The translations under genes were made by a program, and so were the position numbers. Source: Candidatus Omnitrophota bacterium (GTDB taxonomy: Bacteria > Omnitrophota > Gorgyraeia > Gygaellales > Profunditerraquicolaceae). Taken from it: a DNA stretch of 64,000 bases. Each line of letters starts with the position of its first letter. Positions within the stretch are counted from its first letter, which is position 1. Positions 1-5,455 of this stretch are shown piece after piece. The notes beneath the pieces were generated by a model. It saw nothing but the letters and a program-made list of their open reading frames with translations, had not been told where the DNA came from and made no database searches. Location: positions 154,514 through 218,513 of the forward strand of contig JAQUQW010000002.1 in assembly GCA_028716245.1 (NCBI GenBank). The letters are read 5' to 3'.

Positions 1-3
1 ACC

Positions 4-702
4 ATGGTTACCCGTACTCTCCCTACAAAAAGAGAAAGGATTATCGCCACTATCCTGCTGGCTTTGGCCATTCCCTGTTCAGCTCAGTTAGGGGTGATTC
101 TTTCTTTACTCCACGGAACCTCCAAAGGGCTATTGATTTGGGCCGGGGTGGTAAGTTTAGTCTTTCTTTTTATAGGGTTCCTTTCTTCTAAGATATTACC
201 AGGTGATTCACCGTCGTTTTATATGGAAGTTCCGCCGCTGCGGTTACCAAAATTATTCAATGTGTTTATTAAAACTTACAGCCGGGTTAAATGGTATTTT
301 GCCGAGATATTTCCCATGTTTATATTGGCAAGCATTATAATCTGGATCGGCCAGCTTACCGGGCTATTCGTTATTTTCACCAGAGTATTAGAGTATCCCG
401 TGCGTTGGATAGGTTTGCCGGATAAAACAGCGGTTGCTTTTTTATTCGGGTTTTTTAGGAGAGATTACGGAGCCGGCGGGCTCTACGATATTAAGAAAGC
501 CGGTTTGTTTTCTACAAATCAGCTGGTTGTGGCTTGCGTTACCTTAACTTTATTTCTTCCCTGTATTGCCCAGTTTCTGATGAATGCCAAGGAGAGAGGG
601 TGGAAAACAGGAATTGCCATATCGGTATTTATACTCTTCTTTTCTTTTTTTGTAGGTTTTCTTCTCAATTCAATATTCAATATTTCAGGAGTTCATTTAT
701 GA
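4..702 (+). CDS. feoB: Ferrous iron transporter FeoB, C-terminal membrane (Gate) portion; 5-prime end lies outside the window
   Basis: Open frame from the window edge. Polytopic membrane protein that resembles the FeoB C-terminal gate region. A FeoA-domain gene follows immediately. Confidence 0.6.
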   Translation: MVTRTLPTKRERIIATILLALAIPCSAQLGVILSLLHGTSKGLLIWAGVVSLVFLFIGFLSSKILPGDSPSFYMEVPPLRLPKLFNVFIKTYSRVKWYFAEIFPMFILASIIIWIGQLTGLFVIFTRVLEYPVRWIGLPDKTAVAFLFGFFRRDYGAGGLYDIKKAGLFSTNQLVVACVTLTLFLPCIAQFLMNAKERGWKTGIAISVFILFFSFFVGFLLNSIFNISGVHL

Positions 703-1076
703 AGTGCAGCCTTTGCGGGTTTGTATTTAAAGAAGATCAGGCTCAAGCGGCTTGTGGAAATTGCCCGTTAATAAAAGGGTGCAAACTGATTAGGTGCCCA
801 AAGTGCGGATTTGAAACTCCGCCTGAACCAAAATGGGGAAAATACCTTAAGAAAGGGGGAGGGTTTGTAATGACTGATTTAAATGTTAACCAAAGCGGCA
901 GGATTTGCAGGATTAATACATGCGACCATAAGAAATTGAATAAAATTATGGCCATGGGCGTTTTACCCGGAATGACTATCACTTTGATCCAGAAATTTCC
1001 TTCCTACGTTTTCCAGATTGGCCAATCCCAATTTGCAATAGATAAAAGATTAGCCGAATGCATTTTTGTCGAGTAG
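699..1076 (+). CDS. FeoA-domain protein with an N-terminal Cys-rich zinc-ribbon extension
   Basis: ATG at 699 overlaps the feoB stop. N-terminus MKCSLCGFV..CGNCP..CKLIRCPKCGF gives CxxC/CxxC/CPxCG knuckles. C-terminal approximately 70 aa (LNVNQSGRICRI...MGVLPGMTITL...) resembles the FeoA SH3-like fold. Confidence 0.55.
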   Translation: MKCSLCGFVFKEDQAQAACGNCPLIKGCKLIRCPKCGFETPPEPKWGKYLKKGGGFVMTDLNVNQSGRICRINTCDHKKLNKIMAMGVLPGMTITLIQKFPSYVFQIGQSQFAIDKRLAECIFVE

Positions 1077-1227
1077 ATGTTTATAGGCAGGCAGATGGAA
1101 AGCTTGATGCTCTTCTTCTGAAGAATACCCAAAAGGCAATTTGTCAAATATCGTACTGCCTTTCAGATTACTACAGGTAAAATTGTTTAGATTCGGCGGC
1201 GAGGAAAAAAGTTAAGCTTGAGGTGTT

Positions 1228-1887
1228 TTATTTAAGAAACTGCTCAGCAATCTTTCTTTTACGATTTAAGCAAGGTAGGTTGGGTTTGTAGTAGAGCCAG
1301 GATAGAAGTTTTAAAGAATCATTTTTAGCAAAACGAAGTTGCCAAATAGGAAATTCTCTATTTATTTTAAGATAGTGAGTTAATGACCTTTCTACATTCA
1401 ATGTTTCTTTTATTTTTCCCCTAATCCAGCTAATTTGGTTAAAATTAGTTGAGATAAATTTAGTATATAATCTATGGTAGGTATATCTTTTCCCTTTATA
1501 TTTCATGTATTTATCGGTATAAGTAAAAACAGAACCATCACCATCAAGATGCCCACGCAAGAAATCAACGAAATATTGATCTGGAATATCTAATTTACCC
1601 ATTAACATTGTTTTCTTGGGCAGCAACCCAATTTTTTGCAACCATTGGTAAAATTTTATATTTCCAAAATTTATTCTATAAGTGAGTTTCTTTCCAAATC
1701 CGCTTGGAGGCGTGACCATTGTTTTATTTTTGATACCAAGACACTCTTTGAAGGTATTTGCTAACTGCTGGTCAGTTGTGGTGAAGAGGATGTGCCTTTT
1801 GTCTTTTGATAGGTTTCCATCAGTCGCTATAAGGCCGATAGCGTACGCTAAATTTGAATTCCATTCGTGGTTAATATTTTGTCTCAT
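1228..1887 (-). CDS. LAGLIDADG-family homing endonuclease, free-standing
   Basis: Two LAGLIDADG-type motifs are present: LAYAIGLIATDGNL and FLRGHLDGDGSV. The start is set at Met MRQNINHEW because the longer track ORF (to 1980) reads through the tRNA-Leu gene. Confidence 0.65.
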   Translation of the reverse strand: MRQNINHEWNSNLAYAIGLIATDGNLSKDKRHILFTTTDQQLANTFKECLGIKNKTMVTPPSGFGKKLTYRINFGNIKFYQWLQKIGLLPKKTMLMGKLDIPDQYFVDFLRGHLDGDGSVFTYTDKYMKYKGKRYTYHRLYTKFISTNFNQISWIRGKIKETLNVERSLTHYLKINREFPIWQLRFAKNDSLKLLSWLYYKPNLPCLNRKRKIAEQFLK

Positions 1888-1895
1888 TAAAAAAG

Positions 1896-1978
1896 TACCG
1901 GGAGAGGGACTTGAACCCACATGAGCTTGCGCTCGGCAGCTTTTGAGGCTGCTGCGTCTGCCATTTCGCCATCCCGGC
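1896..1978 (-). tRNA. tRNA-Leu (anticodon CAA), type II with a long variable arm
   Basis: Reverse complement folds as GCCGGGA acceptor stem, D-stem GCG/CGC, anticodon stem GCAGC/GCTGC with loop CTCAAAA, variable arm GAGC-GCAA-GCTC, and T-loop TTCAAGT. There is one U-U mismatch in the T-stem. Confidence 0.75.
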
Positions 1979-2043
1979 ATATATTTTTAAGTTGACGCTA
2001 AGCATTTTATATTCTAAAATAGCAAAGGTCAATACATAAATTT

Positions 2044-2120
2044 TGGGGCTGTAGCTCAGCTGGGAGAGCACTTGCATGGCATGCAAGGGGTCAGGAGTTC
2101 GATCCTCCTCAGCTCCACCA
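2044..2120 (+). tRNA. tRNA-Ala (anticodon GGC) with encoded CCA
   Basis: GGGGCTGTAGCTCAGCTGGGAGAGC...CTTGC-ATGGCAT-GCAAG...GGTTCGATCC...AGCTCCACCA. The G3:U70 alanine identity pair is present, the cloverleaf is canonical, and CCA is encoded. Confidence 0.9.
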
Positions 2121-2205
2121 ACTTTTTACAAAGGGCGGATAATCTCCGTCCTTTGTTTTATAAGCTATTGACGCTCATTTTAGGAGGGGGTATAATCTAA
2201 GCATT

Positions 2206-3054
2206 ATGATTCTAGGCGCGCATATTTCCGGGGCAGGAAAGATTTACCAGACACTGGATATCGCTCACGATTTAAAATGCGATACCATGCAGATCTTCAG
2301 CCGTTCCCCGCAGTCCTGGCGTAACGGCGCTCAAATTGCCCCTGAAGATATCGAGGAATTTATCGCCCGGCGCAAGAAATATAAAATTAACCCGGTTTTT
2401 ATCCATATATCTTACCTGATTAATTTGGCTTCTCCTGATGCGCGCCTCTACCACGGTTCGATCCAGGCTTATATTGAGGATATTCAGGAGGCGGATAAAT
2501 TAGGCGTTGATTATATTGTTACGCATATGGGCAGCCATAAGGAGACCTCCGAGGATGCCGGAATTAAGCGGTTGATTGAAGCGCTAAATAAAATAATCGA
2601 GAAGACCAAAGATTCTAAAGTCGGAATATTATTGGAAAATACTTCCGGCAGCGGATCCTGGCTGGGCTACAGGTTTTATCATCAACATAAAATTATCAAA
2701 GGCATCAAAGAAAAATCCCGCGTAGGTTTATGTCTGGATACCGCCCATGCTTATTTAGCCGGATATAACCTGGCTACCAAAGAAGGCCTTGAAAAAATGA
2801 TCGATGAGATTGATGAGATGGTTGGGACAAAATTGATTAAACTCATCCACCTTAATGACGCAGCAGGAGAATTGGGTTGCCACCATGACCGCCACGACCA
2901 TATCGGACAGGGCCACATTGGCCTGGCCGGGATGAAAAGAATTATCAATCATCCTAAATTAAAGAATATCCCGATGATTTTAGAAACACCCAAAAGCACT
3001 GAAGACAGCGATAAGAAAAACTTGGCTTTGGTAAGAAAACTGGGGCGTAAATAA
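2206..3054 (+). CDS. nfo: Endonuclease IV (AP endonuclease family 2, xylose-isomerase-like TIM barrel)
   Basis: 282 aa. [35 protein letters not shown] and IHLNDAAGE are Nfo metal-ligand motifs. Confidence 0.85.
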
Positions 3055-3055
3055 A

Positions 3056-5455
3056 ATGCATTATAATTTTAAAAAGATCGAAGAAAAATGGCAAAAAAAA
3101 TGGCAGCAAGCTTATGCCTTCCGCGCGCAAGCCGATCCTAAACGTAAAAAATATTATCTGCTGGAAATGTTTCCCTACCCCAGCGGTAAAATTCACATGG
3201 GCCATGTGCGTAATTACACTATCGGCGATGTTGCCAGCCGTTTTAAAAGTTTAGAGGGTTATAACGTAATGCACCCGATGGGCTTTGATGCTTTTGGCCA
3301 GCCGGCGGAGAACGCGGCGATAAAAAACAAAACCAAGCCTGGCGACTGGACGCGTAAATGTATCAAGGAGATGGAAACAGAATTAAAGAAAATGGGTTTT
3401 TCCTACGATTGGGAGCGGGAAGTTTCCACCTGCCAAAGCGATTATTATAAATGGAACCAGTGGATTTTCCTCAAGATGCTTGAACGCGGCCTGGCTTATA
3501 GGAAGGCTTCACAAGTTAACTGGTGCCCCAGCTGCGCCACAACTTTAGCGAATGAAGAAGTGATCGAAGGCGAGTGCTGGCGCTGCCAGACAAAAGTAGA
3601 GCAAAAAGATTTAGAGCAATGGTATTTAAAGATTACCGGATATAAAGAAAGATTATTGGAGGATTTAAACCAGCTTAAAAATTGGCCGGCGCGGGTTTTG
3701 GCAATGCAGAATAACTGGATCGGCAAAAGCAGCGGCGTGGATATTTATTTTCGCCTGGAAAATAGCGATAAATTGATTTCGGTTTTTACTACCCGGGTGG
3801 ATACTATTTTTGGGGCAACTTACATTGTCCTGGCTCCGGAGCACCCTTTAGTTTTAGATTTAATTAAGGGCAAACCTCAGGAAAAAGAGGCTTTAGAGTT
3901 TATCAAAAAGGTTGCCAGCGAAAGTAAAATAGTGCGCGCCGCATCCGACGTTAAAAAAGAAGGGGTTTTTACCGGAAGCTTCGCGATTAATCCGGTAAAT
4001 AATGAAAAGGTCCCGGTTTGGATTGCCGATTATGTTTTAATGGAATATGGAACAGGGGCGATTATGGCTGTGCCCACGCATGATCAGCGGGATTTTCTTT
4101 TTGCCAAAGAGCATAAGCTGCCAATGCGCATTGTCATTTCGCCTGAAGATAATTCTCTAAAATCCGCGGAAGTATTAACCCGGGCATATGAAGGCGATGG
4201 CATTCAGGTGAATTCCGGAGAATTTGACGGGTTAAACAATCAGGAGGCCAAGACAAAAATTGCCCAATGGATGGAGGCTAAGGGCATCGGTAAAATACAA
4301 ACCCATTGGCGCCTGCGTGACTGGTTGATTTCCCGCCAGCGTTATTGGGGCACTCCCATACCGGTGATTTATTGCCCGGCTTGCGGCATTGTCCCGGTTC
4401 CTTTTAAAGATTTGCCCGTTGAGCTGCCGGCTGATGCGCCTTTTACCGGAGAAGGCGGAAGCCCTTTAGGCAAGGTTAAGCAATTTGTAGAAGTAAAATG
4501 TCCTAAGTGTAAAGGAAAAGCTCGCCGGGAAACCGATACCATGGCTACTTTTTTTGACTCCTCCTGGTATTTCTTAAGGTTCTGCTCGTCTAAATTTAAC
4601 GCGGCGCCGTTTGATGTAAATGAAGCCAAATACTGGATGGCCGTTGATCAGTATATCGGAGGTATTGAGCATGCGATCCTGCATTTGTTGTATTCGCGGT
4701 TTTTTACTAAATTTTTCCAGGATTTAAAGATGATTGATTTCAGTGAGCCGTTTGATAAGCTGCTCACTCAGGGGATGGTTTTAAAAGACGGCGAAGTTAT
4801 GTCAAAGTCCAGGGGTAATATCGTTGATCCGGATTCGATGATTAAGAATTACGGCGCCGATGCCCTGCGCCTGTTTATCTTATTTGCCGCTCCGCCGGAG
4901 ACGGAGTTGGAGTGGGAGGAGCGCGGGTTAGAAGGAGCGTATAAATTTTTAAACCGTGTCTGGCGGATCCAGGAAAATTTAAAGGGTAACGCTGATCCGC
5001 AGGTATTAAAAGCCCTGCACAAGACAATAAAAAAAGTAGGCGCGGATTTTAGCGAATTTAAGTTTAACACCGCCATTGCCGGTTTGATGGAGCTAACCAA
5101 CATTATTTATCAATTAGGCGCAGATAAGCAGGTATTTTCCAGCCTTGTCATTATGCTTAGCCCGATTGTCCCGCATTTTTCCGAAGAGCTTTGGCAGATT
5201 TTAGGCAACAAGGAAAGTATATTTAAAACCAGCTGGCCTAAATATGATCCTCAGTTGCTGGTTGAAGAAAATGTGGAGTTGGTAATTCAGGTTAACGGTA
5301 AAGTACGCAGTAAAATCGAAGTTGCCCGCGGTATGTCCGAAGATAAACTTAAAGAATTGGTGCTTAAAGATGAAAAATTAATTCCCTGGCTGGAAGGCAA
5401 AACCCCGAAGAAATTCATCATTGTCCCGCAAAAACTCGTCAATATCGTAATTTAA
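3056..5455 (+). CDS. leuS: Leucyl-tRNA synthetase
   Basis: 799 aa. Class I HMGH motif ([13 protein letters not shown]), KMSKS (VMSKSRGN), and a bacterial-type CP1 editing domain. Confidence 0.95.

Follow-up and report, generated by a model that had tools for sequence, protein, structure and literature searches.

We analysed a 64,000-nt stretch of contig JAQUQW010000002.1 (positions 154,514 to 218,513 of the forward strand) from a Candidatus Omnitrophota bacterium assembly (GCA_028716245.1), hereafter the window, in which a free-standing LAGLIDADG homing endonuclease gene (HEG) lies at 1228–1887 on the minus strand, directly behind an intact gene for tRNA-Leu(CAA). Comparison with related loci suggests, with a probability that we put at about three in four, that it is a selfish gene specialised on the chromosomal tRNA-Leu(CAA) gene, and that the tRNA and the HEG together form a mobile cassette. 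The type of enzyme is already known; its tRNA-specialised architecture, or any description of a free-standing LAGLIDADG family linked to tRNA-Leu(CAA), was not found in the full-text literature searched.

The longest six-frame open reading frame (ORF) at this position, 1228–1980 on the minus strand (250 aa), crosses the tRNA-Leu gene, as the preliminary description of the stretch had remarked. The real start of the HEG is the ATG at 1887, 8 nt past the discriminator base A1896, giving a protein of 219 aa with its TAA stop at 1228–1230; the 8-nt junction between discriminator and AUG (1888–1895, minus strand) reads CUUUUUUA (written elsewhere CTTTTTTA). ARAGORN, Rfam and Pfam agree on the arrangement given earlier, a two-motif LAGLIDADG ORF 8 nt downstream of an intact tRNA-Leu on the minus strand, and the gene itself is defined by the ORF list, Pfam, structure and substitution rates. 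Its product matches the Pfam family LAGLIDADG_3 (PF14528) with E = 3e-7 and 31 bits against a cut-off of 22.5. The first LAGLIDADG motif, LAYAIGLIATDGNL, spans residues 13–26 (1810–1851, minus strand), with the catalytic D23 encoded at 1819–1821, and the second, FVDFLRGHLDGDGS, spans residues 106–119 (1531–1572, minus strand), with the catalytic D117 at 1537–1539. The catalytic acidic residues, to which the preliminary description had drawn attention, are retained: D23/G24 and D117/G118 are invariant in an alignment of 37 homologues.

An AlphaFold2 model built with the same number of homologues (predicted local distance difference test, pLDDT, 89.6) has an order of secondary structure elements that fits the tandem alpha-beta-beta-alpha-beta-beta-alpha fold. 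Its top Foldseek matches are LAGLIDADG enzymes only, with probability 1.00, and the best matches in the PDB are the monomeric enzymes I-Tsp061I (E = 2.5e-10), E-DreI/I-DmoI and I-SceI; a sequence search of the PDB gave weak matches to I-CreI only, and no specific curated family for the protein was found in NCBIfam. Judged by its motifs and predicted fold, the protein is an intact two-domain LAGLIDADG enzyme and an ordinary member of its family. Ratios of non-synonymous to synonymous substitution (dN/dS) were 0.10–0.16 in the five pairs with unsaturated dS; the protein is therefore under purifying selection and maintained by it.

The tie to one tRNA species extends well beyond the window. A protein search returned 472 homologues with identities of 50–92% and a constant length of ~220 aa, mostly from Omnitrophota metagenome-assembled genomes (MAGs) with Patescibacteria further out, and the C-terminus, RKRKIAExFL, is conserved across phyla. 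In a scan with one genome per species the family was present in at least 536 genomes, and from these relatives we sampled 80 loci (loci are referred to throughout by L numbers), hosted by MAGs of Omnitrophota, Patescibacteria, Rokubacteria/Methylomirabilota and Chloroflexi (Anaerolineales). A tRNA-Leu(CAA) gene on the same strand adjoins the ORF in 77 of the 80, and in 2 more the contig ends within the tRNA, an adjacency beyond chance. Two arrangements occur. In type 1, found in Omnitrophota and Patescibacteria, the tRNA lies directly upstream of the ORF, as in the window. In type 2, comprising eight loci from Rokubacteria/Methylomirabilota and Anaerolineales (L019, L046, L066, L068 and L070–L073; for example L070:3842–4657), the gene precedes the tRNA by 6–147 nt or overlaps with it, and the protein has an extra N-terminal segment of ~60 aa resembling a helix-turn-helix (HTH) domain (sub-threshold Pfam HTH matches). 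In L072 and L073 the open frame continues into the tRNA. The N-terminal extensions of several database homologues are translated tRNA T-arms, so the read-through error seen in the window's six-frame ORF is made by gene callers elsewhere too.

A phage origin of the family was considered and rejected, as it is practically absent from viral contigs: a scan of IMG/VR with the family alignment gave one distant match only, at 26% identity. A hint of movement between phyla comes from L045, whose leuS is nearer to that of the window (59%) than Patescibacteria leuS genes are (45–47%), and whose tRNA (acceptor GGGGATG...CATCCCC) and HEG are nearest to Patescibacteria versions; the cassette may have crossed between phyla here, although the host labels of such MAGs are unreliable.

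Comparison with allelic loci lacking the ORF, as suggested in the preliminary description, revealed empty alleles in abundance. Relatives were collected by a metagenome scan anchored on the neighbouring gene nfo, which leaves the sample unbiased as to the HEG, and only those with a tRNA-Leu(CAA) gene and at least 700 nt of downstream sequence were counted (n = 26). The site was HEG-less in 25 of them and occupied in one (L088). Among the empty alleles, L083 is syntenic with the window on both sides (amino acid identity of 93% for feoB, 86% for the feoA-like gene and 90% for nfo), and the distance from the feoA stop to the tRNA 3' end is ~22 nt in L083, against which the window has ~806 extra nt (~1090–1895). 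The ORF accounts for 660 nt of these and the junction for 8 nt; the rest is a 138-nt tail past the HEG stop (1090–1227, minus strand) without counterpart in L083, homology with which resumes at ~1089. The pair L088 and L101, the latter HEG-less, was rejected for delimiting the insertion, since their ~1.1-kb indel comprises two genes: L088 also carries a CheY-like response-regulator receiver gene between HEG and feoB (2500–2940, minus strand) that L101 lacks; L083 was taken instead.

Occupied relatives sharing the window's synteny also exist, namely L162 (identity of 87% for the HEG, 92% for nfo and 88% for leuS) and L164 (HEG 81%, nfo 85%). Given these alongside the empty relatives, presence of the HEG varies even among members of a narrow clade, and vertical descent has also preserved it there for some time. 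Among the HEG-carrying loci of the window, L001, L002/L164 and L162, homology stops at the HEG stop codon, and the right flanks all differ.

The tRNA appears to have been exchanged along with the HEG. Between the window and L083, nucleotide identity is 86% in feoB, 88% in feoA, 83% in nfo and 83% in tRNA-Ala, but only 72–73% in tRNA-Leu, with many differences between tRNA positions 13 and 44. A tRNA gene less conserved than the protein-coding genes around it is the opposite of expectation. To the tRNA-Leu genes of HEG-carrying loci, that of the window is 95% (L002) and 92% (L001) identical. Since the ~66-nt spacer between tRNA-Leu and tRNA-Ala (window 1978–2045), which contains overlapping divergent promoters, is conserved in relatives with and without the HEG alike, the discontinuity between the window and L083 starts at the tRNA body. 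The window's tRNA-Leu allele travels with the HEG, in line with co-conversion of a flanking marker; the evidence, to which the hybrid tRNA of L166 described below also belongs, is comparative and not from a cross. Reading immunity from these tRNA differences was rejected: tRNA types A and B each occur both with and without a HEG, and the tRNAs of L088 and L101 are the same. No tRNA position discriminating HEG-carrying from HEG-less alleles was found when types A and B, and L088 and L101, were compared.

Displaced pieces of tRNA-Leu next to the HEG are a further sign of insertion. Searching with an nhmmer profile made from 78 tRNA-Leu(CAA) genes, we found a partial second tRNA-Leu on the same strand, at or just past the HEG stop, in 12 loci (E from 5e-14 to 4e-3). 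The longest remnants cover tRNA positions 25–85 in L043 (E = 5e-14), 30–85 in L009 (E = 3e-12), 32–85 in L005 (E = 3e-10) and 38–85 in L022 (E = 2e-9); shorter 3' fragments are present in L020, L014, L012 (positions 31–67 only), L052, L048, L003, L010 and L016 (E from 2e-6 to 4e-3). Compared with the functional tRNA that they adjoin, the remnants show only 57–92% identity, but with tRNAs from elsewhere it reaches 95%; they are displaced older tRNA-Leu copies, not repeats of the type left by integration at an attachment (att) site. In L009, L005 and L012 the RKRKIAExFL C-terminus runs straight into remnant position ~30–32, just before the anticodon loop, or is separated from it by no more than a few codons, and in these three loci and L016 the remnant supplies the HEG stop codon. 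L031 has, immediately beside its functional tRNA, a 26-nt piece from the 5' part of another tRNA-Leu. Together with the empty sites in 25 of 26 relatives and the linkage of the family, the remnants support one of two options put forward in the preliminary description, that of a free-standing HEG with the tRNA-Leu locus as its target or landing pad.

A hybrid tRNA and two scarred loci add to these traces. L166 (56–139) and L164 (1997–2080) encode an identical HEG protein and have identical tRNAs from position 22 on, but differ in the 5' flank and at tRNA positions 5–7 and 21; the L166 tRNA has the acceptor-stem mismatches A5xC68 and A6xC67 and scores 39 bits with Rfam, compared with 52, and may be freshly recombined and partly defective. 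The HEG-less loci L100 and L085 carry, downstream of a different functional tRNA, scars of 18–19 nt whose sequence equals the 3' end of the locally common tRNA type. Homing endonuclease genes classically pass through a cycle of gain, decay and loss, and these scars are consistent with HEG losses. In the ~120 nt that directly follow tRNA-Leu on the minus strand, L085 repeats a 30-nt unit, TAAACTCTTGAGGAGGGACTCCTTCAGCAT, in two identical copies and then reads CAACTCCCTTCTTCGGCA, and L100 has CAACTCCCTTCTTCGGCAC after a hairpin.

These observations can be arranged into a putative homing cycle. The enzyme is predicted to cut HEG-less tRNA-Leu(CAA) genes, and the break would be repaired from a HEG-carrying copy, such that the tRNA, whole or from about position 22–32 onwards, becomes the HEG-linked allele; the HEG would be copied in behind the converted tRNA, and the resulting allele is presumably resistant. 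Where donor and recipient have homologous flanks, a clean replacement would result, as in the window compared with L083. Where they share only the tRNA, the far end would be joined illegitimately, leaving the 3' part of the old tRNA as a remnant past the HEG stop, and both parts of the old tRNA may survive, as in L031. We tentatively place the break near positions ~22–32, in the D-arm/anticodon-arm region, because 30–32 is where the longest common remnants begin, position 26 is where the L031 fragment stops, and the crossover in L166 lies past position 21.

As to expression, the only candidate promoter for a transcript of tRNA and HEG is a sigma-70-like TTGACC-17-TAAAAT upstream of the tRNA (2032–2004, minus strand), which overlaps the promoter of the divergent tRNA-Ala (1992–2020, plus strand). 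No promoter was found between tRNA-Leu and the HEG, where the 8-nt junction has no room for one, and no Shine-Dalgarno sequence precedes the HEG AUG, compared with a GGAGG in front of nfo; the HEG is thus probably expressed from the 3' trailer of the tRNA. In the 66 type 1 loci the distance from discriminator to start codon has a median of 8 nt, with values down to 1–3 nt, and is at most 12 nt in 43. Such short gaps occur in 41 of 53 tRNA genes that lack an encoded CCA, compared with 2 of 13 that encode it; CCA-encoding genes have a longer gap, with a Shine-Dalgarno-like GGAGG/AGGAG just before the AUG in two of them (L006 and L032). RNase Z cuts CCA-less tRNA precursors exactly after the discriminator. 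The HEG would be co-transcribed from the tRNA promoter, an RNase Z-type cut at the discriminator would in CCA-less lineages yield an mRNA with a leader of 1–12 nt, and translation of the released HEG mRNA would proceed with no Shine-Dalgarno sequence.

A wider proposal, which we offer tentatively and consider somewhat improbable as a whole, is that of a cross-phylum class of bacterial homing elements, each a LAGLIDADG gene that brings along a resistant version of an essential tRNA gene. The ~85-bp tRNA would be the sole homology arm needed, allowing homing between unrelated genomes, and the HEG would be expressed as a tRNA 3' trailer, with exact tRNA 3' processing freeing an almost leaderless mRNA in a manner comparable to mitochondrial tRNA punctuation.

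Several observations weigh against a selfish cassette homing into tRNA-Leu(CAA), or against parts of this scheme. The HEG looks vertically inherited in the window's own clade (87% in L162, next to 92% for nfo and 88% for leuS), and its ancestry there looks compatible with vertical inheritance, rather than evidencing recent homing into the window genome. In the window itself, an unfiltered nhmmer run with the tRNA-Leu profile on the 340 nt that surround the HEG stop, in which E values as high as 1000 were allowed, found no remnant. The minus strand at 1211–1227 reads AACACCTCAAGCTTAAC (string ACCTCAAGCT), at the place where L005, L009, L012 and L162 carry the remnant anticodon loop; this is a possible vestige of a remnant, not significant alone. 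In both L009 and L012, the anticodon stem has the same 3' strand in remnant and functional tRNA. The HEG-carrying L088 and the HEG-less L101 have identical tRNAs, so immunity based on tRNA sequence would hold only if L101 is resistant and has lost its HEG secondarily. With the gene upstream of the tRNA and an extra N-terminal HTH segment in type 2, one geometry does not fit all members, and the association between CCA and gap length (Fisher p = 6e-5) ignores phylogenetic non-independence.

If the protein had instead been domesticated for a host role in tRNA-Leu(CAA) biology, for example in regulation, processing or maturation, and kept beside its client gene, the strong purifying selection, the constant length and highly conserved C-terminus across phyla, the conserved adjacency to one tRNA and the vertical-looking retention in the window's clade would all be in keeping. 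We consider this unlikely: the HEG is missing from 25 of 26 close relatives with the same tRNA and synteny, both catalytic aspartates are invariant, unlike in WhiA-type domesticated proteins, and tRNA remnants, hybrid tRNA and allele swap indicate insertion events. WhiA itself is only a distant fold match of the model (Foldseek ranks 10 and 50), and a WhiA-like domesticated protein was rejected as a candidate, the HEG product keeping the catalytic aspartates and having no C-terminal HTH.

We give a similarly low probability to the idea that the enzyme has its real target at another locus, such as an rRNA gene, and that the spot behind the tRNA merely offers transcription and is hard to delete, with the variation of the tRNA being unrelated. 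The nearest solved structures are indeed those of rRNA-intron enzymes, and Patescibacteria carry many LAGLIDADG genes in rRNA introns (PMC11270868). A target elsewhere leaves unexplained, however, both the convergence of independent lineages in at least four phyla on tRNA-Leu(CAA), on either of its sides, and the displaced tRNA-Leu fragments flanking the HEG.

The 3' end of tRNA-Leu is a classical att site, and partial copies of a tRNA 3' end downstream of inserted DNA are typical of integrase-type islands, which would make the HEG leftover cargo of such an island and the tRNA fragments its attR repeats. This is very improbable, and we rejected it: the extra DNA amounts to just ~806 nt, in which we found no further ORF or integrase and which has no room for one; the remnants, at 57–92% identity, are not copies of the adjoining tRNA end; the HEG-only unit recurs in all 80 loci; and the family is, as noted, practically absent from viral contigs.

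Among tRNA-Leu genes, the classical group I intron host is tRNA-Leu(UAA). The earlier appeal to tRNA-Leu as such a host therefore holds for that isoacceptor and not for the CAA one, where it is an analogy only. The other option of the preliminary description, what is left, in degenerate form, of a group I intron formerly splitting the tRNA, is hardly credible and was rejected: although bacterial tRNA genes, including those of Patescibacteria, do host group I introns (PMC13011429) and some remnant junctions adjoin the anticodon loop, Rfam scans of window 1–4000, which included the region where a search for a group I core had been suggested, and of seven related loci gave tRNAs only, with no Intron_gpI match at E ≤ 1, a complete and uninterrupted tRNA precedes the ORF, and the non-coding DNA around the ORF is just 8 nt plus 138 nt. 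The HEG is free-standing between tRNA-Leu and feoA, outside any intron.

Read as a selfish element of tRNA-Leu(CAA), the HEG resembles several known systems in part. With I-Tsp061I, I-DmoI and I-SceI it shares two LAGLIDADG motifs with catalytic aspartates, the predicted double fold and a size of ~200–235 aa; its identity to them is only 13–19%, and they are intron-encoded, whereas the window HEG stands alone, outside any intron, behind a tRNA gene of a bacterial chromosome. Phage T4 SegB recognises a site with the conserved tRNA T-psi-C motif, and its own gene and flanking tRNA markers are preferentially inherited (PMC2330249). Like the window HEG, SegB and other seg/mob HEGs are free-standing among or beside tRNA genes, but SegB is a GIY-YIG enzyme of a phage and spreads in co-infections, while the window HEG is a LAGLIDADG enzyme gene of cellular chromosomes, tied to a single tRNA species and with its start codon abutting the tRNA.

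A parallel in architecture is provided by the mORFs of fungal mitochondria (Glomus atp6/atp9/cox2/nad3 and Allomyces atp6), which combine a replacement 3' part of the host gene, a LAGLIDADG ORF and a displaced native 3' remnant. Inserted and native copies are 63.5% identical for the Glomus atp6 mORF (PMC3630166), a divergence comparable to the 57–92% between remnants and functional tRNAs here. The displaced native 3' part has its counterpart in the 12 related loci; in the window the only candidate is the non-significant possible vestige at 1211–1227. The systems differ in that the host gene here is a tRNA gene, not a protein-coding one, that the hosts are bacteria of several phyla, and that the ORF follows the host gene as a 3' trailer with no in-frame fusion. 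With group I intron HEGs (tRNA-Leu(UAA), tRNA-Arg(CCU), Patescibacteria tRNA-Asn) the family shares a tRNA-gene target and, in some cases, the LAGLIDADG type (PMC13011429). Here, by contrast, there is no ribozyme and no split tRNA, and harmlessness to the host would come from the whole tRNA copy, not from splicing. Neither the paper on Patescibacteria rRNA insertions (PMC11270868) nor that on their tRNA introns (PMC13011429) mentions a tRNA-Leu(CAA)-linked HEG family.

Free-standing LAGLIDADG genes in bacterial chromosomes are routinely annotated and rarely explained; here a family is tied to one conserved target locus, of which empty, occupied, scarred and hybrid alleles can all be compared. 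It offers a natural system for studying HEG persistence in cellular genomes, neither organellar nor phage, including the tiny genomes of Patescibacteria, and its hundreds of diverged enzyme/target pairs, with a predictable tRNA-gene target, could serve as meganuclease scaffolds. It also allows a test of whether the expression of a protein can be coupled to the 3' processing of a tRNA. For annotation, it is a warning that gene callers often extend such ORFs through the tRNA, and that horizontal transfer may have exchanged the tRNA-Leu(CAA) alleles of these phyla.

Turning to the remaining features of the locus, ARAGORN calls tRNA-Leu(CAA) at 1895–1978 on the minus strand and tRNA-Ala(GGC) at 2045–2120 on the plus strand. 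The Rfam tRNA model gives 51.5 bits over 1896–1978 (minus strand), and with both programs combined we delimit an uninterrupted, intact tRNA-Leu(CAA) at 1896–1978, without an encoded CCA. Its G1-U72 wobble pair (GGTA end) is shared with L001, L002, L162 and L164. Rfam flags as non-canonical a U50-U64 mismatch in its T stem, and this U-U mismatch recurs in L104 and L109, two type B alleles without the HEG. The tRNA-Ala lies, as described before, close by on the opposite strand, 66 nt from the tRNA-Leu 5' end. This proximity had been taken to mark a mobile hotspot, but the pair and its shared promoter spacer are native in HEG-free relatives too and are no evidence by themselves. In relatives including L085, L086, L089, L091, L100, L101, L103, L105, L109 and L131, the tRNA-Ala is inverted, on the same strand as tRNA-Leu. 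The Rfam tmRNA model matches the tRNA-Ala at 2045–2120 end to end with 36 bits, below its gathering score of 47; a tmRNA gene was rejected here, the match being an artefact of the tRNA-like ends of tmRNA.

No second HEG and no second tRNA-Leu were found within the 64-kb window. Beyond the tRNA-Ala lie nfo (2206–3054) and, next to it, leuS (3056–5455); the other flank, on the HEG side, is formed by feoB and a Zn-ribbon/FeoA gene (4–1076, plus strand). The G+C content is ~0.30 in the ORF region compared with 0.40–0.45 in the flanks. The small ORF at 699–1076 (plus strand) overlaps the feoB stop codon and has a Cys-rich N-terminus (CxxC ... CPxC), followed by a putatively FeoA-like segment. Conservation with L083 is 86%, but the other relatives lack this ORF, and the identity of their feoB-like gene is only ~32%.

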